From: Acidobacteriota bacterium
GTDB lineage: Bacteria > Actinomycetota > Acidimicrobiia > Spongiisociales > UBA5794
Reading direction: 5' to 3'
Length of the DNA stretch: 64,000 nt
Assembly: GCA_022562055.1 (NCBI GenBank)
Contig: JADFQA010000007.1
Coordinates: forward strand, 3,680 to 67,679
Below, in pieces: positions 17,282 to 27,089 of the stretch. Position numbers and translations under genes: made by a program. The notes under the pieces are model-generated. The model was not told the origin of the DNA. It ran no database searches and saw nothing but the letters and a program-made list of their open reading frames with translations. Position 1 is the stretch's first letter. Each line of letters starts with the position of its first letter.

Positions 17282-17644
17282 CGTCGCCAGCCATCCGCGG
17301 CTCTCGCAAATATCCCACACTGGTCTCCGCAACTCCGGGGAGGGCCGCTGCATATCTGGCTGGATACGCCTCGCGGGATCGACGCGGACTCACTGCGAGA
17401 CGCGGTGCTTCGACAGGGTGTAGCGATCGTGGCGGGCAGACAATGGCACCCGAGTGACGCCCCCAGCTCGTTCATCCGGTTGAGCTACGCTGCCGTTACC
17501 ACACCTCTTGTCGAGGAGGGTGCGTACCCACTCGCACGAGCGATAGGGCCGGAGATTTGTCCTTGTCGTTCGGTGTTGGTCTATGTTTCGGGCGGGGTGT
17601 ATTCGCCTAGGCGGACGGTGATTGTGGCCCCACCATCGAGGTAG
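17282..17644 (+). pseudogene. C-terminal remnant of a PLP-dependent (class I/II, MocR-like) aminotransferase with no start codon or N-terminal domain
   Basis: The frame opens immediately after the stop of the preceding gene and reads ...GGPLHIWLDTPRGIDADSLRDAVLRQGVAIVAGRQWHPSDAPSSFIRLSYAAVTTPLVEEGAYPLARAI. This is typical of an aminotransferase C-terminus. No ATG appears until 17405, and the 3' end overlaps the convergent VanW gene. Confidence 0.5.
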
Positions 17645-19632
17645 CTGCCGCCAGCGGCGCTCTGGGTCTGCACGATGCCATTCTGTTCGGCGCTTGTAAC
17701 CACGATCGGGTCACCGACCGCAACTCCAAAGCCGGCCGCCGCAAACGTGGCCTGAGCGTTGGCGAATTCCATGCCGACAACCGACGGCACCAGCAGTGGA
17801 CAATCCTCTTCGCTGTCTGGCATGTTGCACGGATGTACCTCGATAATTTTCGTCCGGGGACGGTACGTCGCGGTGTCTTTTTCTTCAGTGACCGTACCGT
17901 CGGGAGCCGTGATAATGCGTGTGATCGTCACCGACCATCCGCCGAGGCCATTGCGCTTGATATGTTCTTCGCCGGGGGCGAGCGAGGCGTCGGGCTCGTA
18001 CTCGGTTTTCGGTTCAGTGAATGCGAATCGCCCCGACCTCTCGGCCTCGCATGTGACGCCGCCGGTGTTGCCATAGAACTGCACGGTGATCGAGGTCGAC
18101 GTGTACTGGGTCTTGATGATGAGGGCCGTCTCGGTGTTGTTACGCAGAATGAGATTCGGCGCCGGCCAAGAAATCGTCGCTTCACGGCCCTCGGGATAGC
18201 GCGAGAAATAGATCGAATGCGGAACATGTCTGATGTCCTCGTAACAACCGAAAAAGATCGCGTTGTAGAACGTAGTTGCGAACTGGCTGACGCCGCCGCC
18301 AATAACCTGTACTAGTTCACCACCCAAGATCATGCCGTCCGACAAGTAGCCCTTTTCAACAGTTCGTTCGCCGACTGCTACGTTGAGCGAATACTCTTCT
18401 CCGGGAAGGACGATGTTTCCGTCGACCGCCTCGGCGAAAAGCTGAATGTTGATAACGCGATTCTGCCCTGCCGGATGGTTGGTGGTGAACTCGCTCACCA
18501 GACCGACTTCGTCCATGGCTTCGGCATCTGCCGTTGTGAACGAAGCCGCCTCCCCTTCGGCAAATGGGAACTCGCCGATCCGCACGCCGGAAGACGCGGT
18601 GGCGAAAATGGCTTCAGCAACGAGGTCGATGTCGAGCGACGTCGATGGACGCGACGGGACGAGTACGACCGGGAATCCCTCGCCTTCGCCGACCTCGGCC
18701 TCCTCGTCGATGGTCCACTCAGCATCGCGAGCCTCCGAGCGCGCAGTCTCACGCAGTGGTTCGATGACGTTGACGAGTTTGTCTCTGTCAAATCCGAGGA
18801 CGATCCGCGGAGTTCCCAAAGTCACCACGTTCGATACGAATGCGTTGATGAGTTGCTGCGAGGTGATGACAAGCTCGATTTCGGGCTGCTCGGAACGGAG
18901 GGTGATTGGCCCGCCGATGAGCAAGTTCGCTTCGCTCACGGCCTTGTCAATATCGTTTCTGGTTAGTGAAGGCTGCACCTCAATTGTTGGAAGCCATGCG
19001 GTGTTTGTGCTTGGGTTCGTGAGGACGTTGGTGAGAATCGCTAATGCGGGGACACGGTCGATTCCCTCACCCGACACCGGGTACTCCGCCTTGGCGAATC
19101 CGCCAGCCATCACTACCGCCCCCTCGTATGCCGGGATGGAGATGGCGTCTTGCTGCCATTGGTCGATCTGTTGATCCAGAAGTACAGGATCGATGGTCAC
19201 CGCAACGTCAATCGTCCGAGTGTCGCCAAACGACGAAAACCAACCCAGTACTTGACCAATCAGACCGGACTCACGTCGTTGTAACAGTGCCTCTTCAACT
19301 ACTTCATCAGTGTTGAGGACGAGGTCGACCGACTTTGGGTCAAGCTGGAACGTAGTGTCCTTGACGGTAATCAAGGCCGGCTCGTCGCGTAGAGCAGCCT
19401 CGTACTCAAGAACAGCAACTGTTGCATCCTCTGGACCGAATCCGCCTACCTCGATTCCCGCAATTGTGACATTGCGAGCGATTTCCCCGTTGCGCGACGA
19501 TATGTCGGCCACGATCACCAGTAAGGGGAACAGCACAACTACGACGAGTAGGTATTTCAGGTTGTTTCGTAATTTCGCGATTACGCGTGCAGCCCCTGCC
19601 GGTGTCGGTGGAAATCGGCGCTCACTCACCAT
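17581..19632 (-). CDS. VanW family protein with N-terminal TM anchor and C-terminal PASTA domain
   Basis: TM LKYLLVVVVLFPLLVIV. VanW core motifs (PGEEYSLNVAVGERTVEKGY, GGGVSQFATTFYNA). C-terminal about 70 aa matching PASTA (VPSVVGMEFANAQATFAAAGFGVAVGDPIVV...). Confidence 0.75.
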   Translation of the reverse strand: MVSERRFPPTPAGAARVIAKLRNNLKYLLVVVVLFPLLVIVADISSRNGEIARNVTIAGIEVGGFGPEDATVAVLEYEAALRDEPALITVKDTTFQLDPKSVDLVLNTDEVVEEALLQRRESGLIGQVLGWFSSFGDTRTIDVAVTIDPVLLDQQIDQWQQDAISIPAYEGAVVMAGGFAKAEYPVSGEGIDRVPALAILTNVLTNPSTNTAWLPTIEVQPSLTRNDIDKAVSEANLLIGGPITLRSEQPEIELVITSQQLINAFVSNVVTLGTPRIVLGFDRDKLVNVIEPLRETARSEARDAEWTIDEEAEVGEGEGFPVVLVPSRPSTSLDIDLVAEAIFATASSGVRIGEFPFAEGEAASFTTADAEAMDEVGLVSEFTTNHPAGQNRVINIQLFAEAVDGNIVLPGEEYSLNVAVGERTVEKGYLSDGMILGGELVQVIGGGVSQFATTFYNAIFFGCYEDIRHVPHSIYFSRYPEGREATISWPAPNLILRNNTETALIIKTQYTSTSITVQFYGNTGGVTCEAERSGRFAFTEPKTEYEPDASLAPGEEHIKRNGLGGWSVTITRIITAPDGTVTEEKDTATYRPRTKIIEVHPCNMPDSEEDCPLLVPSVVGMEFANAQATFAAAGFGVAVGDPIVVTSAEQNGIVQTQSAAGGSYLDGGATITVRLGEYTPPET

Positions 19633-19709
19633 GTGTATGCCGACACCACAGTCTAAATGGTTTCTGAAATTGCACAATATCGCATGTGTGTCGTGCGATA
19701 CGATGGGGC

Positions 19710-20483
19710 ATGGATCTGCCGATTACCGTTGCGGGCGAGGACCTCGCCGTCTCCGCCACAACCTATGTTGCGTTTAGGCAGTGCCCGGCATCTGCGGTTG
19801 CCCGCCTTTCGGGAATCTACGGACCCGAAACCAAGGCCTCGTTCAAGGGCAGCCTTGCGCACAGGATTTTCGCACGCCATCTCGAGCGCGGTCCTATCGA
19901 TTCGACCGACGTTGACCATGCGTGTCGAGAGGAGATCGGGAAAGCCTTGAACCACAAGATGGCGTCACTTGGATTGAAGCCGTCGGAGCTGGGCCTTGTC
20001 CTACAGGAGGTGGGTGCTCTCTACGAGACGTTTCGGCAAATGCCCGTCGATGGATTCCGTGCTTGTGAGGTGTACATCGATGCCGATGCCGGATCGGGCG
20101 TCACCCTGCGGGGTCGCATCGACGCGATTTTTGATACTAATGATGGCGGTGTGCGTCTCGTTGATTGGAAGACTGGTCAGCTTGGTGATGTCGACGACCA
20201 GTTGGCCTTCTACGCCTTGACGTGGTTTGCGGATACGGGTGCCCTGCCCGCTACGATCGAGGCTCTTTCGGTGCAGACCGGAGAGCGCACCGAGCGCGTC
20301 CCCACCGAGGACTCGTTGCACATGACTGCGGTTGAGGTTGGGAGTCTCGTGGACACGGTGCGACGTCTACTCGTCAGCGGTGACGAAGGCGAACGCCGGG
20401 GCGGACAGTGGTGTCGCTGGTGTCCTCTCCTTGAGGATTGTTCGGAAGGTCAAACCGCGACGGCCGTCTACCGCCACGGATAA
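19710..20483 (+). CDS. Cas4/RecB-like PD-(D/E)XK nuclease with predicted 4Fe-4S cluster, stand-alone
   Basis: Nuclease motifs GRIDAIF (D), LVDWKTG (ExK) and QLAFYAL (QxxxY). Four Cys in a Cas4/AddB-like arrangement (C at FRQCPA, then CRWCPLLEDC). Confidence 0.7.
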   Translation: MDLPITVAGEDLAVSATTYVAFRQCPASAVARLSGIYGPETKASFKGSLAHRIFARHLERGPIDSTDVDHACREEIGKALNHKMASLGLKPSELGLVLQEVGALYETFRQMPVDGFRACEVYIDADAGSGVTLRGRIDAIFDTNDGGVRLVDWKTGQLGDVDDQLAFYALTWFADTGALPATIEALSVQTGERTERVPTEDSLHMTAVEVGSLVDTVRRLLVSGDEGERRGGQWCRWCPLLEDCSEGQTATAVYRHG

Positions 20484-20532: not shown

Positions 20533-21393
20533 ATGGCAACCTTGATGGCGATCCACGCCCACCCCGATGACGAGAGTTCCAAGGGCGCCGCGACCGTTGC
20601 TCGGTACGCTGACGCAGGGGTTCGATGTCTGCTTATTACGGCCACGGGAGGTGAGGCCGGCGACATCCTCAACCCCGCAATGGACAACGATGAAGTCCGC
20701 GACAATCTCGCTGAAATTCGTCGTAAAGAACTTGAGGAGGCAGCTCGTATCATCGGATACGACGATGTGTTCATGCTCGGTTATCGCGACTCGGGCATGG
20801 TCGATTCCCCGGACAACGCCAACCCTGCAGCTTTCGTGAACGCTGACTACGACGAAGTTCTCGAGAAGGTCGTCACGTTGGTGCGCACGCATCGTCCAGA
20901 TGTATTCCTTGGGTACGACGCGCACGAGTTCTACCCGCATCCTGACCACTTGCGAATACACGCCATCACGACCGACATCATGGCGGCTGCTGCGGACGCG
21001 AAATGGTTTCCGGATGCGGGCGAGCCGTGGAAGATCCGGCGGCTGGTGGCGTCCCTGTTTTCGCGGCGAGGCATGTTGGCCATCCACGAGGTACTCCTCG
21101 AACGTGATGGAGAATCCCCCTTTACCGAGTGGATCGACAGAATTCGAGGAGAAGATGTGCCCGACGTCAGGACGCTTGCTGTCGAAGTAAGCGCCACCAT
21201 GCAACGCGCACGGGATGCTCTGCGGGCGCACGCCACCCAGGTCGATCCGGACGGATTTTGGTTTCAGGTGCCGATCAAGCTTGCAAAAGAGGTGTACCCG
21301 TACGAGGACTTTCAGATTCTCCTTTCTAACCCTCCGATGACAGACGGGGTAGGCGACCTCTTCGCTGGGCTCACCGGCGGGACTTCCGGGTAG
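20533..21393 (+). CDS. mca: Mycothiol S-conjugate amidase
   Basis: LMAIHAHPDDESSKGAATVARYADAGVRCLLITATGGEAGDILNP, later YPHPDHLRIH and ALRAHATQVDP. These closely resemble the remembered Mca (Rv1082) sequence; 286 aa. Confidence 0.8.
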   Translation: MATLMAIHAHPDDESSKGAATVARYADAGVRCLLITATGGEAGDILNPAMDNDEVRDNLAEIRRKELEEAARIIGYDDVFMLGYRDSGMVDSPDNANPAAFVNADYDEVLEKVVTLVRTHRPDVFLGYDAHEFYPHPDHLRIHAITTDIMAAAADAKWFPDAGEPWKIRRLVASLFSRRGMLAIHEVLLERDGESPFTEWIDRIRGEDVPDVRTLAVEVSATMQRARDALRAHATQVDPDGFWFQVPIKLAKEVYPYEDFQILLSNPPMTDGVGDLFAGLTGGTSG

Positions 21394-21565
21394 TCTTTGC
21401 AGCTTCGCCCCTTGGTAAGCCGTATTGCTGCGCGGCAACAAGAGCGATCGTCCGCATGCTGACACGGACTGCATTGGGCTAGTTGGTCGGTAGCGATTGC
21501 GCCCTCGGTGGCGAGTTGTTGGAATCATTCGGCGATGCAGTCGGGATGTGGTGTAATTCGGTCCT

Positions 21566-23056
21566 ATGGAGATCGAATCGGGGGCCAACAACAGCATCAA
21601 AGCGGAGCTCGGTTTCCTCGCTGCACCGCTTGAAGGTGTCGGCATCCACCCGGATGTCGAACGGAGGCGCAGGTCCGCGGTCGGTGAATACATGATGCGC
21701 CGCCATGCGGCCCACCGCCAAGTCCCTCTCGTGGTTGTTGTCGGACTCACCGGAACAGGTGTCTCGACGGTCGTCAACGCGTTGTGCGGCGCGGATGTCG
21801 CCACCACAGGAGTGCTCAGGCCGACCACGACCAGTCCGCTCATCGTTGTGACGGCAGACAATCTCGATGCTCCGGTCACAGGACTCGCTGTTGCGATGGA
21901 CGGTGCGCCACGGGTCGTCGAGATGGCTTCCGTTCCGTTCACCATCATCGACGCACCGGCGTGGGAGATGGGTGTCGGCGGCGAGGTCTCCGCTCGGCTT
22001 CTGCCCCTTGCTGATGTCGTTGTGTGTGTCACGACACCTGAGCGGTACGCAGATGCCGGAGTGTGGCGGCTCATCGAGGCCGCCAGAGACGCTGGGGTGG
22101 CAGTCGTCGTAGTGATGAACATGCCGACCGACGGTCCGCTCGACGACCTGAAGGGTCGCATGGCCCTGAGGTACGGTGCGCTTGCACCACCGGTCGTTGC
22201 TGGAATCGCATCTGATGATCTCGTGGCTGCGATTACGGTGGCCGCTTCTTCGCACCGCGTTCACAGCATCGATGGTGCGCGGTCGAGGTTGCGGGAAGTG
22301 CTCAAGACAATGGAGCCGATCATTGAGGAGTCCGCGGCCCTTCTTGAGACCGCCAGGGTCATCTACGCCGACCATTCACGGGCTTTGGCGGATCGGCTAA
22401 AGGCCGGCGAATTTGTCCCTGCAGCTGAGTCGCAGACGCTGACTGATGCGTCGTTCTCGCTCGCATCAGTCATCACTAGCCGCATCGGCGCCGCTGCCGA
22501 GCAGACGGCGACGGCGTGGGCCGCGACGAAGTTGGGAGAAGCCGCGCTCGTGTCCGAAACTGTTGGATTGTGGCGCCATGGACCCGCCGTTTCCGCGTTG
22601 TCGCAGCGGCATGTGGCTGAGACCATCGGCGACATACGGATGGTTGTCCGTGACATGACGAAGTGGCGTCGGCCCTCTGAGCGAAAGCTGTCGCTGGCGT
22701 CAGACTATCTGTGGAGGGCTGCTCTGGGACGCGACGTTGCCAACTGGACAATGAAGCGCGGTTTCGGAAAGCGCCGCGCCAGAGCCGTGGATAGGGTCCG
22801 GAGTTTGTTCTCCGAGGCGGTAACGCAAGTCTTTAGTGCGGACCGGCAGCGTTTTATCGACCGCTTGCATCACATTCCGACGGCCGCCCGGCTTTGGTCA
22901 CTGCACGAATCATTCGAGGACCGTCCAGACGTGGTTCGGGACCGTGGCGAATCTGAGTCTTCGATCAGCATCGATCTGGCAGACGGTTCCGACATCTTGG
23001 TCGACGAACACGGGACCACTCCGGATTCCGTGCATGCGAAGGGTGCTGATGCGTGA
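21566..23056 (+). CDS. P-loop GTPase-family protein with degenerate G1 and G4 motifs (likely pseudo-GTPase), first gene of a coupled pair
   Basis: G-domain architecture, but Walker A reads GLTGTGVST (Lys replaced by Val) and G4 reads NMPTD instead of NKxD. Long helical C-terminal region; 496 aa. Confidence 0.7.
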   Translation: MEIESGANNSIKAELGFLAAPLEGVGIHPDVERRRRSAVGEYMMRRHAAHRQVPLVVVVGLTGTGVSTVVNALCGADVATTGVLRPTTTSPLIVVTADNLDAPVTGLAVAMDGAPRVVEMASVPFTIIDAPAWEMGVGGEVSARLLPLADVVVCVTTPERYADAGVWRLIEAARDAGVAVVVVMNMPTDGPLDDLKGRMALRYGALAPPVVAGIASDDLVAAITVAASSHRVHSIDGARSRLREVLKTMEPIIEESAALLETARVIYADHSRALADRLKAGEFVPAAESQTLTDASFSLASVITSRIGAAAEQTATAWAATKLGEAALVSETVGLWRHGPAVSALSQRHVAETIGDIRMVVRDMTKWRRPSERKLSLASDYLWRAALGRDVANWTMKRGFGKRRARAVDRVRSLFSEAVTQVFSADRQRFIDRLHHIPTAARLWSLHESFEDRPDVVRDRGESESSISIDLADGSDILVDEHGTTPDSVHAKGADA

Positions 23057-24227
23057 CGTTGATCAACTAATCGATGCCCTTGATAGGGTGGTCGTTACGG
23101 CCCCCGGATTCGTCGACGAAGGTCTCGCCATTGCGGCGGATTCGGCTGCTTTGCAACTCCGGCGCCGGACCGGCTACCTAGGTGAAACCCTTGTCCTTGC
23201 GATTGTCGGTGGTACTGGGGCGGGAAAGTCGAGCCTGCTAAATGCGATTGCTGGGGAGCCAATCGCCTCGGTGAGCGACATTCGCCCGCACACCCACGAG
23301 CCGCTCGCATGGATACCCGAATCCGCGGGTGGTGGACTCACCGCACTCCTCGACGATCTCGAGGTGCATGTCCGTAGACCACAGAACCTATTTGATTCTC
23401 TGTGCATCATTGATCTTCCAGACTTTGACTCGTACGCCGAGGCGCACCGTGAGGTGGTCGAGCGGTTGCTGCCGCTGGTGGACGTCGTTGCGTGGCTGGT
23501 CGACCCGGTCAAGTACGCGGATCCGTCCCTGCATAGTGACTTCCTCAAACCGGTCCATCAACACGGCGCACAGTTTGTGTTTGTCATGAACAAGATGGAT
23601 CTGCTTTCCCCCGAGAGCCGCGTGGCGGTCGTTGACGACTTTGTCCGTCTGCTCGGTGAAGATGGCTTCGAGGAGACGTCCGTCATAGCTATTGCGGCCT
23701 CGCCGACCGAGGGAGAGCCGTTCGGTATCGATGAGTTGACGGCTCACCTTCGTCTCCGGCTGACTGACAAGCGTCTCGCTCTGAACAAACTCGTGCACGA
23801 GGTGCGGGATCTCGTTCGCCGAATCGGGATCGATGCAAGTGTGTGGAACGGGTTTGGTGAGTCTTTCGATGAGCGGTGGCGGGTTACCCGAGACAAGGTA
23901 GCGACCGGGCTTGCCGAACCCGTCGGCTCGCCGGAGCGGGAGGATGCGGCTTGTCGGTTGTCGGACTTTGTTGCGGCGTTAGCGCAGTCTGCAGGCGACC
24001 ACGCAGCCGAGGTACGAAAGGCGGTGCCGCACACGGTCATCGATCAAGCGGTCAAAGATGTTGCTGCCAACGCCATGACCACAAGTCTGACCGCGCGGAG
24101 AGACCATCTCGACGCGAAGATCGGAAGCCCGCTCCGCGATTGGGCGCATCGTCGGGCTGTGTTCGGCGCTACTGTCGCATTCGCGGGCGTGAGTGCATAT
24201 GCAGTGGAGGACAGATTGTGGCGTTGA
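23049..24227 (+). CDS. Canonical P-loop GTPase (dynamin/HSR1-like) with hydrophobic C-terminal segment, second gene of the coupled pair
   Basis: ATGCGTGA start/stop overlap with the upstream gene. Walker A GGTGAGKSSLLNAI, G3 IIDLPD, G4 VMNKMD. C-terminal AVFGATVAFAGVSAYAV is hydrophobic. Confidence 0.7.
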   Translation: MRDVDQLIDALDRVVVTAPGFVDEGLAIAADSAALQLRRRTGYLGETLVLAIVGGTGAGKSSLLNAIAGEPIASVSDIRPHTHEPLAWIPESAGGGLTALLDDLEVHVRRPQNLFDSLCIIDLPDFDSYAEAHREVVERLLPLVDVVAWLVDPVKYADPSLHSDFLKPVHQHGAQFVFVMNKMDLLSPESRVAVVDDFVRLLGEDGFEETSVIAIAASPTEGEPFGIDELTAHLRLRLTDKRLALNKLVHEVRDLVRRIGIDASVWNGFGESFDERWRVTRDKVATGLAEPVGSPEREDAACRLSDFVAALAQSAGDHAAEVRKAVPHTVIDQAVKDVAANAMTTSLTARRDHLDAKIGSPLRDWAHRRAVFGATVAFAGVSAYAVEDRLWR

Positions 24228-25108
24228 CGAACCTGGAGATTTTCGGATATGAGATCTCCGATTCACTATCGGATCAGATCGGCCCGGCGGTTGCAACACT
24301 GTCTTGGGTAGTGGTGTCTTTTGTTGCATGGAAGGTTATAAAACGGATTGGCGACTCCAGCGTGACGCGGCTGACTACGCGTGCCGAGAAGCTGACGGCG
24401 ATCGAGGCTGAGGACCGTAAGCAGCGTGTCGAAACGCTCTGGTCGGCGGTGAGGGCTGTCATGTTGTCCGTTGTCGTCATCATTGTCTTTTTGGGGATAC
24501 TCAACGTATGGGGTGTCAACACGGCGCCGTTCCTGGCCATCGGATCGATTATGGGGTTGGCTGTCGGTTTCGGCGCCCAAGACTTTGTCAAAGACGTGAT
24601 CGCTGGGTTCCTGATCCTCGCCGAAGATCAGTACTCGCTCGGCGATGTCGTCAAAATCGCCGACGTCAGCGGCACGGTGAAGGAGATCACGCTTCGTTCG
24701 ACCATCTTGCGAGACCTCGACGGGAGGGTTCACTACGTGCCAAACGGATCGATATCGGTGGCCACGAACTACACCCAGGAGTACAGCCAGGTGGTTATCG
24801 ACGTTGGGTTTGGGTACGGCGAAGACGTCGACAAGATCATTCCCGTCATTCAAGACGAACTCGATCGGTTCGCGGCTGACGAAAAGTGGGCGTCGGCGTT
24901 TATCGATCCGCCCGAGATCCTCGGCGTCCAAGAACTCGGCGACTCCTCAGTGTCCGTCCGGTGTCTCTTGCGGGTCGCACCAGAGTTCCGCTGGTCGTCG
25001 CGGAGGGAGTTCCTGCGTCGCATCAAGATGCGCTTCGATGCCGACGACATCGAAATTCCGTTCCCGTACGTGACGATTGCGCGACCTCCAACCAAGAGCA
25101 ACGACTAG
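24218..25108 (+). CDS. Small-conductance mechanosensitive channel (MscS family)
   Basis: GTG start overlaps the upstream GTPase stop by 10 nt. Three TM helices, then MscS TM3/beta-domain signature (IGSIMGLAVGFGAQDFVKDVIAGFLIL, GDVVKI..VSGTVKEITLRSTILRDLDGRVHYVPNG). Confidence 0.8.
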   Translation: MALTNLEIFGYEISDSLSDQIGPAVATLSWVVVSFVAWKVIKRIGDSSVTRLTTRAEKLTAIEAEDRKQRVETLWSAVRAVMLSVVVIIVFLGILNVWGVNTAPFLAIGSIMGLAVGFGAQDFVKDVIAGFLILAEDQYSLGDVVKIADVSGTVKEITLRSTILRDLDGRVHYVPNGSISVATNYTQEYSQVVIDVGFGYGEDVDKIIPVIQDELDRFAADEKWASAFIDPPEILGVQELGDSSVSVRCLLRVAPEFRWSSRREFLRRIKMRFDADDIEIPFPYVTIARPPTKSND

Positions 25109-25126
25109 ACCGGGGCACGCACGGAT

Positions 25127-25750
25127 TTGGCTAGTTCGACGCGGTTGCGCGGTATCGAGGTCGTTGTTTTCGACCTGGGCGGTGTCCTGGTACGGCTCGG
25201 CTCCTACACCGATGTGGTTGGTGAGGACTCGATGTCGGCTGATGAGTTTTGGTCCATGTGGCTGTCGAGTCCTGCCGTTCGCCGTCTTGACGGCGGCGTA
25301 TCGAGTGTCAACGAATTCGGCGAGGAGATCGTGAAGGAACTTGGCTTGCCGTTTGCCCCTCAAGAACTGATACAAAGGTTCCTTGAATGGCCTAAGGGGC
25401 TGTTTGATGGGGCGTACGAAGTGGTTCAGCGCGTGCGAGAGTCTCGCACGGTGGCGGTTCTCAGCAACATCAACGTCTTGCACTGGACTTCACAGCGCGA
25501 TCACGAGACGATCTCGCGGATGTTTGATGTGCAGTTTCTCTCTTACGAAATCGGACTGGTCAAACCCGACTTGACCGTGTTCCACCATGTCATCAACGAA
25601 CTCGGTGTCGAGCCGGATGCGATCTTCTTCCTCGACGACAATCAGGCCAACGTCAGCGCAGCTAGGGGAGTTGGGATCGATGCGGTCCTCGTGAACAGCG
25701 TTGACCAGATGCGGCGCGCCCTGGTCGACCGCGGCGTGCTGCACCTCTAA
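25127..25750 (+). CDS. HAD superfamily hydrolase (subfamily IA-like)
   Basis: Motif I VVVFDLGGVLV and motif IV FFLDDNQANVSAARGVGIDAV; 207 aa. Confidence 0.75.
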   Translation: MASSTRLRGIEVVVFDLGGVLVRLGSYTDVVGEDSMSADEFWSMWLSSPAVRRLDGGVSSVNEFGEEIVKELGLPFAPQELIQRFLEWPKGLFDGAYEVVQRVRESRTVAVLSNINVLHWTSQRDHETISRMFDVQFLSYEIGLVKPDLTVFHHVINELGVEPDAIFFLDDNQANVSAARGVGIDAVLVNSVDQMRRALVDRGVLHL

Positions 25751-25769
25751 CCCCATGTTCAAGAGGGGG

Positions 25770-27089
25770 TCAGGGCGACGTGCTCTTTGGGGTCGAGGTT
25801 TCGCGGCGGACCTGGAATCTTTCGTAGACGTAGCTAAGGCTTGCGCCTTTGTAGGTGGCGGTGACTTCCCAGCACCCGTTGATACGAGCGTCGATGCCCG
25901 CAATCATCAACTGACCGCCTTCGGGTGTGCCCGCGTTGGTGCCCGGCTGGTTTGACACGATGGTCTCGCCGTCTAGGACATCGATACGGCGCCACGTCAC
26001 GGCGATCTCGGGGCTTGGTTCCGTGGGCCAGCCTGCAAACCTGACGCTCCACCATAGGCTCTTCCGTGGCTGGTATTCGAATCCTTGGCGGGGCAGAATT
26101 GTCCACAGATCGGCGGTTCCGTACCACAGGTCGAATTCCCAGAGGGGGTCTGCGTAATACGGTTCGGGCGCCGAGAACCCGGGGTCTGGGGGTGCGGTCG
26201 ATATGCAAATCCCTTGGGTTCGGTCACCTTCGGGAGCACCAGCGGCGAGCGATGACACGATATTCCAGGTTTGCTCCCATTGGCCTGGTGACACCGCATC
26301 ACCAGCCACAAGCACGACGTCAACAACATTGTCGTTGAGGACCCACAGCGCGCGTTTTGTCGTGAGTCCATCGGGCTTCGAGCAACCTTCCGAATCCAAG
26401 CGTGCGCGCTCGAAATCGTTGATCGGTGTCGATGAACGGGGCCGTGGGGAGAGCGGTGCCTCAATCGTATCGTTTGCGGTTGCTGTGTCTCGCGACAAAC
26501 CGATGTAGGGACCCACGACTGTGATCGAGATCAGGGTGTCGGTGGCGCCGACCCGGAGCATATCGTCGCCGACTACCGCGAGGCATTGTGATGTCTCTGC
26601 TGTCAGTGGAAATGTGGCGATCTGCACCATTGCACTGTCGGGTCCCAGCCCCGCGGTGTCCCGCCGAAACCAATCCGATGGGTACGCAATGGACCATCGA
26701 GGCGGTTCCTGTTTGCTCTGCTGAGCACTTGACGCAGTCGCAACAGTGACCGGCGACGTGAGGTCCTGCGGGTCGCCGCTATTGAGACTCGTGGCAACGG
26801 CGATGAACACGAAGATGCTGACGACCGCCGCACCGACTAGCAGCGATCGTCGGTGTCTTCGTTTCGGACGGTCGCCTCCGAGCGTAGGTGGTTGAAGATT
26901 CGAGGCCCCGGACACAAGAGTCCGTACCGCGTGGTCTCGGGCTTCATCGAAACCGGGAACGGGCGAGGTTGATCGCGACTCGTCGCACCCAAGCGTTCGG
27001 TGAGTCCATTTGCTCCACGCTGTTCCAGTCGCGATGGGCGCGGACGAAGGCCTCCTGGGCGAGGTCCTCAGCGGCCCAGCGGTTACCAC
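25770..27089 (-). CDS. Membrane-anchored protein with large extracytoplasmic domain (anti-sigma-factor-like topology); start uncertain
   Basis: Single TM (RRSLLVGAAVVSIFVFIAVA) after a short cytoplasmic N-terminus. The annotated 5' end overlaps the sigma-like ORF by 145 nt in another frame. Confidence 0.45.
   Translation of the reverse strand: MVTAGPLRTSPRRPSSAPIATGTAWSKWTHRTLGCDESRSTSPVPGFDEARDHAVRTLVSGASNLQPPTLGGDRPKRRHRRSLLVGAAVVSIFVFIAVATSLNSGDPQDLTSPVTVATASSAQQSKQEPPRWSIAYPSDWFRRDTAGLGPDSAMVQIATFPLTAETSQCLAVVGDDMLRVGATDTLISITVVGPYIGLSRDTATANDTIEAPLSPRPRSSTPINDFERARLDSEGCSKPDGLTTKRALWVLNDNVVDVVLVAGDAVSPGQWEQTWNIVSSLAAGAPEGDRTQGICISTAPPDPGFSAPEPYYADPLWEFDLWYGTADLWTILPRQGFEYQPRKSLWWSVRFAGWPTEPSPEIAVTWRRIDVLDGETIVSNQPGTNAGTPEGGQLMIAGIDARINGCWEVTATYKGASLSYVYERFQVRRETSTPKSTSP

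Follow-up and report, generated by a model that had tools for sequence, protein, structure and literature searches.

Gene pair and motifs at the locus

Bacterial dynamin-like proteins (DLPs) are mostly encoded as gene pairs, and what each half contributes, and whether the nucleotide sites of both are needed, is a central question about them. We analyzed such a pair in a 64,000-nucleotide stretch of contig JADFQA010000007.1 (hereafter "the window", to which all positions refer). The upstream gene, G1*, encodes a DynA-like protein in which the Walker A lysine of the P-loop has been replaced by valine, and the downstream gene, G2, encodes a DynB-like partner with an intact P-loop. The features of the pair are the following:

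21566..23056, + strand: G1*, DynA-like dynamin-superfamily protein, 496 aa, Walker A Lys replaced by Val (open reading frame [ORF] translation, orthologs P0001-P0005)
21566..23056, + strand: regions of G1*, namely G domain at residues ~55-212, helical stalk at 216-451 and a disordered acidic tail (translation and AlphaFold2 [AF2] model)
21743..21769, + strand: degenerate P-loop GLTGTGVST of G1*, residues 60-68 (V66 codon GTC at 21761-21763)
21818..21832, + strand: switch I (the "G2 motif" of GTPases) RPTTT of G1*, residues 85-89, kept (R85, P86, T87 and T88 invariant in the clade)
21950..21967, + strand: G3 region DAPAWE of G1*, residues 129-134 (Asp retained, Gly of DxxG gone)
22118..22132, + strand: G4 position NMPTD of G1* (N185-M-P-T-D189), aligned to NKMD of the downstream G2
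23049..23056, + strand: ATGCGTGA, 8-nt start/stop overlap of G1* and G2 (G2 ATG at 23049 plus the G1* stop codon)
23049..24227, + strand: G2, DynB-like dynamin-superfamily GTPase, 392 aa (Pfam Dynamin_N, 41.1 bits against a 27-bit cut-off)
23208-23234, 23412-23432 and 23589-23600, + strand: P-loop GGTGAGKSS, DLPDFDS and NKMD of G2
24156-24206, + strand: conserved C-terminal hydrophobic helix of G2, 17 residues

The two genes stand in tandem in all 12 related loci examined, and the 8-nt overlap is identical in L001, L004, L012, L013 and L014, the last belonging to a second, separate group of valine-bearing proteins described below. The pairing of G1* with an intact-P-loop partner, which the first-pass annotation of this DNA had pointed out, is thus borne out at the level of the overlap, and the arrangement suggests translational coupling of the two genes. 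As the overlap holds both the start of the partner and the stop of the DynA-like gene itself, the DynA-like proteins end in ...D-A-stop, an ending kept in members as distant as those of the window, L006 and L014.

Valine at the Walker A lysine position

Nucleotides 21743-21769, in frame with the ORF at 21566-23056 (+), read GGA CTC ACC GGA ACA GGT GTC TCG ACG and translate to G60-L-T-G-T-G-V66-S-T68. When G1* is aligned with its paralog G2 and with 149 family representatives, V66 occupies the Walker A lysine column, where 142 of the 149 have lysine; judged from these alignments, the valine is a substitution at the homologous position and no chance motif. The earlier reading of the P-loop as GLTGTGVST with the lysine changed to valine therefore stands, and so does its reading of the G4 position as NMPTD: against NKMD of G2, both the Lys and the Asp of NKxD are missing.

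Checked against the canonical motifs of TRAFAC GTPases, G1* retains the switch I threonine and the alpha/beta fold of the G domain and lacks Walker A GxxxxGK[ST], G3 DxxG and G4 [NT]KxD. The threonine, T88, is present in all 149 of the other family representatives, and the G3 glycine is missing from G1* and from all but one of them. The partner had been described as a canonical GTPase. This holds for its P-loop, with lysine K60 in GGTGAGKSS, and for NKMD, both of which are intact, but not for G3, which reads DLPDFDS instead of DxxG.

Conservation of the valine within its clade

A search of 5.8 billion protein clusters gave five clusters of G1* orthologs at 95-53% identity, all reading G-L-T-G-[ST]-G-V-S-T. 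At the nucleotide level, the valine is invariant in seven independent assemblies drawn from Logan, NCBI, JGI and ENA (window, L011, L013, L004, L012, L001 and L009, the last being a further species genome). Its codon is GTC in some of them and GTG in others, the neighboring codons vary synonymously, and the G1* reading frame is intact in all seven. An exhaustive profile search across 1.84 billion representatives placed this Val clade in a single 50%-identity cluster, and scores fell from 918 bits for that cluster to 166 bits at the next match. A scan of the species genomes' contigs for G1* relatives found only two, and searching for homologs with an alignment of 30 family sequences yielded just 11 proteins and brought nothing new.

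About 190 residues of G1* are invariant across the clade. Its dN/dS (Nei–Gojobori) was 0.28 between the two closest members (dS 0.08) and 0.08-0.15 in more distant comparisons, the most distant of which had a saturated dS; the corresponding values were 0.05-0.10 for G2 and 0.04-0.07 for the MscS-family gene downstream. G1* is kept by purifying selection, which excludes the readings of the valine as a sequencing error and of the gene as a pseudogene. An error of sequencing or assembly, or a lesion of one strain, as the source of the valine is refuted almost beyond doubt by the same residue in seven sources with differing synonymous codons. The notion of a decaying pseudogene could draw on G1* being the fastest gene of its block, on its long branch and on the lack of a Pfam match above threshold; it is refuted, with only the slightest residual chance of being right, by the intact frames, dN/dS of 0.08-0.28, the ~190 invariant residues and the kept 8-nt overlap.

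The rate difference itself is clear when the five syntenic genes are compared by identity, G1* evolving fastest of the five. Between the window and L001/L004/L012, identity was 54-55% for G1*, 69-70% for G2, 68-73% for the PD-(D/E)XK nuclease, 77% for the PIG-L deacetylase and 78-82% for MscS; to the nearest outgroup genome, the lysine-bearing (K-type) L006, the values were 31%, 45%, 49%, 55% and 50%, respectively. The long stem branch and the faster evolution of G1* fit what is expected after release of a catalytic constraint.

Within the clade, the pocket residues G60, G63, G65, S67, T68, T87, T88 and D129 are all invariant. The changes specific to it are K66V, P45R, R139G (in the switch II region), R176A and W353T; the family-conserved P45, R139, R176 and W353 are thus replaced at nucleotides ~21698, 21980, 22091 and 22622 (residues 45, 139, 176 and 353). 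We found no compensating conserved gain of Lys or Arg in the Val-clade G domain, the only basic gain being R45, outside the pocket motifs. Invariant motifs private to the clade, with no counterpart in the wider family, are MLRRH, PAWE[MI]G, WRRPS and ASDYLWRAALG, and the PAWE of the G3 region is likewise specific to it. R139 is also missing in the second Val clade and in two of the three proteins with arginine in place of the lysine, in a part of the alignment that is gappy.

Lysine state across the DynA-like and DynB-like families

Among the best 149 DynA-like representatives from outside the clade, in a family of ~1958 hits, the Walker A column contains K in 142, V in three, R in three and a gap in one. 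Syntenic outgroup orthologs carry the lysine: the P-loop of the upstream partner reads GPGGTGKSA in the nearest, L006, GPGGTGKST in L017, GPTGSGKSV in L016, GPAGSGKST in L015, GGSGSGKST in L007 and GSTGAGKST in L008 (Ornithinicoccus hortensis). The replacement of lysine by valine is, on this comparison, therefore lineage-specific. Earlier, conservation of the valine (a functional pseudo-enzyme) had been set against lineage specificity (decay); the valine turns out to be conserved in the seven assemblies and lineage-specific at once, and the decay part does not hold. Orthologs with a normal GxxxxGK[ST], which had been proposed as a sign of a sequencing or strain-specific lesion, occur in L006 and L015-L017, none of which is a member of the clade, and the lesion falls away.

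In G2-type homologs the lysine is kept in 120 of 120 and N[KQR]xD in 119 of 120, and by these counts the loss of the lysine is confined to the DynA-like, upstream subunit. The three other valine-bearing representatives find each other as best matches, and the window clade is not their closest relative. They belong to a second Val clade with P-loop GPSG[AV]GVS[TAS] (P0146, P0177, P0246, L014:294-2636 and the P0027 locus). The Val protein of L014 is followed by an intact G2 with GGTGSGKSS via the same ATGCGTGA overlap. This G2 is 92% identical to P0027, which in turn is 48-50% identical to the G2 of K-type genomes and 43% identical to that of the window clade; the Val state of the 629-aa G1 partner at the P0027 locus is taken from the 92%-identical L014 neighbor. 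The best-hit lists and the G2 identity matrix indicate that the change from lysine to valine probably arose twice. A metagenome scan with the alignment of the second Val clade found nothing, and a scan with a single protein found one short contig, L014. The change takes at least two nucleotide changes, and valine was chosen in both clades. Three further representatives have arginine, in the P-loop G[LS][ST]G[TA]GRST: P0178 and P0254, both metagenomic, and P0241 (Embleya sp., WP_395778454.1), whose source is cultured Embleya strains (Streptomycetaceae).

The G4 position behaves differently from the P-loop. In the DynA-like family it reads N-R-x-[P/T/A], with R in 143 of 149 representatives and Asp at the NKxD position in none, and the family G3 is D-x-P-[D/P/A], without the glycine (representatives P0130-P0278). 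DynB-like proteins, too, are without the G3 glycine (DLPDFDS), yet they retain N[KQR]xD. On this survey the noncanonical G3 and G4 are family traits that accompany an intact P-loop in >90% of members, and the base specificity and switch II mechanism of the DynA-like family may be unusual. The G4 change had been taken as a lost motif signaling a pseudo-enzyme. We reject it as a part of such a transition: N-R-x-P is family-wide, most members keep the lysine, and GTP binding is reported for Streptomyces DynA (10.1101/2025.06.23.661029). Noncanonical G3 and G4 are normal for the DynA-like family and no sign of inactivity.

Fold and relation to Streptomyces DynA and DynB

G1* and G2 are paralogous over the G domain (hhalign 98.6%, E 8.5e-16). 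G1* had no Pfam match above threshold, Dynamin_N reaching 19.7 bits against the cut-off of 27 and MMR_HSR1 also remaining below threshold, and sequence searches of the PDB gave no related structure beyond P-loop-level matches. The AF2 models of both proteins consist of a G domain and a long helical bundle (mean pLDDT 77.8 for G1* and 87.7 for G2). Foldseek matched the G1* model to IniA, BDLP, dynamin, Drp1, OPA1, Cj-DLP and mitofusins and the G2 model to EHD2/4, mitofusin-1/2, BDLP, Cj-DLP1/2 and IniA, with low TM-scores of 0.25-0.43 that make only the topology-level match firm. Judged from the models, both families belong to the dynamin superfamily, and the claim that G1* keeps the fold in spite of its substitutions agrees with the alpha/beta fold predicted for its G domain.

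As to a membrane paddle or transmembrane (TM) segment, there is no hydrophobic 19-mer in the window G1* or G2 outside the G-domain core. In the window-type loci examined, the window and L006, both partners are without TM segments and G2 has ~390-420 aa; homologs in other Actinomycetota have ~550-570 aa, and both partners there have strong TM-like segments (KD19 2.3-2.8 in those of Ornithinicoccus hortensis, L008).

DynA and DynB are said, in work of 2017 by Schlimpert et al., to be the dynamin-like pair of the Streptomyces sporulation divisome. A preprint on DynAB (10.1101/2025.06.23.661029) used DynA K74A and DynB K129A as P-loop mutants, and its primer table encodes the Streptomyces venezuelae peptides ...STGAG(K74)STLVNSLVG of DynA and ...TVIAIAGATGSG(K129)STLFNALAGVPVSE of DynB. 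The DynA peptide STGAGKSTLVNSLVG matched G1-family representatives at 15 of 15 positions, with K at residue 74, and G2-type proteins at 11 of 15. The DynB peptides were best matched by the G2 family (20 of 27), as were the peptides encoded by reverse transcription–PCR primers for SCO2684 (GLVLIDL, 7 of 7; VLHERY, 5 of 6). The locus tag of S. venezuelae DynB is vnz_12105, and dynA and dynB of S. coelicolor appear to be SCO2685 and SCO2684. Short as these primer-derived peptides are, together with the family profiles they support placing G1* in the DynA-like and G2 in the DynB-like family, both as divergent members.

Neighboring genes

The genes around the pair are the following:

17581-19677, - strand: VanW/PASTA gene (Pfam)
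19686-20483, + strand: PD-(D/E)XK nuclease (Pfam)
20533-21393, + strand: PIG-L deacetylase (Pfam)
24218..25108, + strand: MscS-family mechanosensitive channel gene, GTG start overlapping the G2 stop by 10 nt (Pfam MS_channel_2nd, 6e-20, plus the first and third domains)

The genes for G1*, G2 and MscS overlap head to tail in the window clade, by 8 nt and then by 10 nt. MscS also stands next to the pair in L001, L004 and L012 and behind the K-type pairs of L006 and L017, with a 4-nt overlap in the latter two. L007 and L015 have an IF-2B-family gene in its place, and neither L016 nor the second Val clade (P0027 locus) has MscS. Because K-type L006 and L017 have MscS and the second Val clade is without it, the linkage does not track the loss of the lysine; from this distribution, it is an older feature of a subclade.

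The upstream gene order (VanW/PASTA, PD-(D/E)XK, PIG-L) is the same in L001, L004, L006, L011 and L015-L017, and the outgroup loci have the order VanW/PASTA, PD-(D/E)XK, usually PIG-L, G1, G2 and a diacylglycerol-kinase-like gene on the opposite strand. Several related loci have a conserved minus-strand gene of 407-446 aa without a Pfam match right before the DynA-like gene (L006:2460-3734, L015:2021-3361, L016:2216-3439, L017:2021-3304 and the P0027 locus); it is absent in the window clade, where G1* comes directly after PIG-L. Past MscS, window positions 25127-27089 hold a HAD-family hydrolase gene (+) and then a 439-aa minus-strand ORF; all related loci have a DAGK_cat gene at the equivalent place, which points to a local rearrangement in the window. 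In L007, the DynA-like gene (L007:4545-6013) looks frameshifted: a 377-aa ORF that turns into Gly/Arg/Pro-rich nonsense in its C-terminal half precedes one of 98 aa. Either a fault of the assembly or genuine decay could explain this. Rfam gave no match within the window, and neither a sigma-70-like promoter nor a meaningful terminator was found at 21300-25400. The close relatives of the window lineage come from hydrothermal-vent and marine metagenomes, and the wider gene neighborhood is Acidimicrobiia-like.

A conserved pseudo-GTPase subunit as the favored reading

G1* keeps the GTPase fold after the loss of an essential catalytic residue, and this state is under purifying selection; both are what is asked of a pseudoGTPase. 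On balance, we consider it probable that G1* is a conserved, catalytically dead pseudo-GTPase subunit of a DynAB-like heterotypic pair. The Walker A lysine would have been replaced by valine in a small uncultured lineage of Actinomycetota, and G1* would then have been retained by purifying selection while evolving faster than its neighbors. With G2 it would form a heterotypic complex, as DynA does with DynB in Streptomyces. By analogy with every tested P-loop lysine mutant of the superfamily, G1* would be unable to hydrolyze GTP and might serve as the structural or adaptor half, the nucleotide-driven steps depending on G2 alone. The remaining pocket residues may have been kept for a continuing use of the pocket face, whether to bind nucleotide weakly or constitutively or to form a G-G interface. 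The overlapping MscS gene, more speculatively, suggests a role at the cytoplasmic membrane, possibly in a response to tension or damage.

Laboratory P-loop mutants of paired DLPs conflict on what a one-sided loss would do. Streptomyces DynA and DynB still assemble into functional repressing complexes when one P-loop is mutated, though not when both are (10.1101/2025.06.23.661029), which makes a one-sided complex plausible. In Cj-DLP1/2, on the other hand, the heterotetramer no longer turns over GTP when the P-loop of either subunit carries a K-to-A change (PMC6104087). If the window pair worked through heterotypic G-dimers in the same way, either the entire complex would be without GTPase activity or G2 would have to form homotypic G-dimers. 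The description of G1* as a regulatory partner of an active GTPase, made before these comparisons, goes further than the evidence carries for this reason, and the companion suggestion that it does not bind nucleotide finds no support in a clade where every other pocket residue is invariant.

Several observations weigh against a dead subunit in a DynAB-like pair. The invariance of all the other pocket residues is unexpected for an abandoned pocket; nucleotide binding that is residual or altered would account for it. By analogy with Cj-DLP1/2, a dead G1* could silence G2. The interaction of G1* and G2 is suggested by the gene overlap and by the Streptomyces pair, and the link to DynA and DynB comes from short primer-derived peptides and family profiles, the window G1* being ~22-30% identical to K-type members. 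Finally, the window G2, with 392 aa, has no TM segments but only a C-terminal hydrophobic helix, whereas DynB has two.

The first of these observations is also an argument for G1* being an active, nucleotide-cycling NTPase still, in which the missing charge would come from a relocated residue, from G2 in trans across the G-G interface or from a monovalent cation, and whose base specificity might be altered. G60, G63, G65, S67, T68, T87, T88 and D129 are invariant despite ~45% overall divergence, the family was already noncanonical in G3 and G4 while GTP binding has been reported for Streptomyces DynA, and the top structural matches of the partner G2 include EHD ATPases. However, the G domain offers no compensating conserved Lys or Arg, R139 and R176 are lost, and the R45 gain lies outside the pocket motifs. 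P-loop lysine mutants of DynA, DynB and Cj-DLP1/2 have been treated as, or measured to be, GTPase-dead, and the long branch and the evolution faster than that of the neighbors fit a released catalytic constraint. We therefore regard continued activity as unlikely.

Slightly less likely again is that G1* has been co-opted away from its GTPase partnership with G2, for example as a scaffold or regulator of MscS or of the cell-envelope enzymes encoded in the neighborhood. The head-to-tail overlap of the three genes in the clade, the clade-private motifs MLRRH, PAWE[MI]G, WRRPS and ASDYLWRAALG, and the lack of a TM segment in G1* and G2, unlike in the homologs of other Actinomycetota, would all agree with this. 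Yet MscS also stands behind the K-type pairs of L006 and L017 and is missing both from the P0027 locus of the second Val clade and from further K-type loci, and the pairing and overlap of G1 and G2 are universal.

If G1* is indeed a conserved pseudo-GTPase subunit, a lineage with a fixed and selected lysine-less DynA-like subunit and an intact partner would be a natural experiment on the nucleotide sites of paired DLPs. The loss has recurred in the DynA-like subunit, with valine in two separate clades and arginine in three representatives, against none in ~120 DynB-like partners, and such subunit-specific recurrence suggests a general asymmetry in the DynA/DynB-type family. A broader proposal, possible but more doubtful than probable, is that DynA/DynB-type pairs are intrinsically asymmetric: the nucleotide cycle of the DynA-like subunit would be dispensable and repeatedly discarded, giving "single-engine" or engine-less heterocomplexes, and here a TM-less pair would be coupled to MscS as a membrane-stress module. 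If true, this would be a module of dynamin and mechanosensitive channel that has not been described so far; a literature search found neither an operon link between dynamin-like proteins and MscS nor a lysine-less bacterial DLP.

Comparison with known systems

Cj-DLP1 and Cj-DLP2, the heterotypic pair of Campylobacter jejuni (PDB 5owv/5oxf; PMC6104087), resemble the window pair as a side-by-side operon pair of DLPs with a G domain and a helical neck and trunk, and they are among the structural matches of both the G1* and the G2 models. Both Cj-DLP subunits, however, have intact P-loops and are larger (~600-730 aa), and no sequence relationship with them was detectable beyond the P-loop (E 0.002). 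The best Foldseek matches of G1* were mycobacterial IniA (PDB 6j72/6j73; E 3.5e-7) and Nostoc BDLP (2j68/2j69; E 1.1e-6), which share with it the build of a G domain and helical bundles at low TM-scores (0.25-0.29). Unlike G1*, IniA and BDLP have a canonical GxxxxGKS and a membrane-inserting paddle, and a profile search found no significant sequence similarity of G1* to either.

DynA of Bacillus subtilis, in which two DLP halves are fused, is likewise a dynamin-like machine with two G domains. It differs from the window pair in that both of its G domains have P-loop lysines, in being a single polypeptide and in its lineage. Some of its membrane tethering and fusion is, going by the title of Burmann et al. 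2011, nucleotide-independent, so a DLP can apparently work without turnover.

Septin pseudo-GTPases (PMC10731463) and the classes of pseudoGTPases (PMC12490416) share the concept that one paralogous subunit degenerates while the fold and interface are kept. Septins belong to another GTPase family, are eukaryotic and form filaments, and we claim no homology to G1*; yeast Cdc11, with P-loop GQSGSGRST, appeared as a weak PDB match of the G1* profile (E 0.41, not significant).

The closest parallel is the pair of Streptomyces. DynA and DynB interact in vivo (PMC6104087), DynA being cytoplasmic and recruited by DynB, which is anchored in the membrane by two TM segments (PMC8748795). As in Streptomyces, a DynA-like gene is directly followed by a DynB-like gene in the window, and G1*, like DynA, is without a hydrophobic segment. 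Unlike in Streptomyces, the window pair is coupled to an MscS gene, and its host is uncultured, with Acidimicrobiia-like synteny, and no sporulating filamentous actinomycete. DynA has K74 where G1* has a natural valine, V66, and the K74A change serves as the GTP-binding-dead mutant of DynA.

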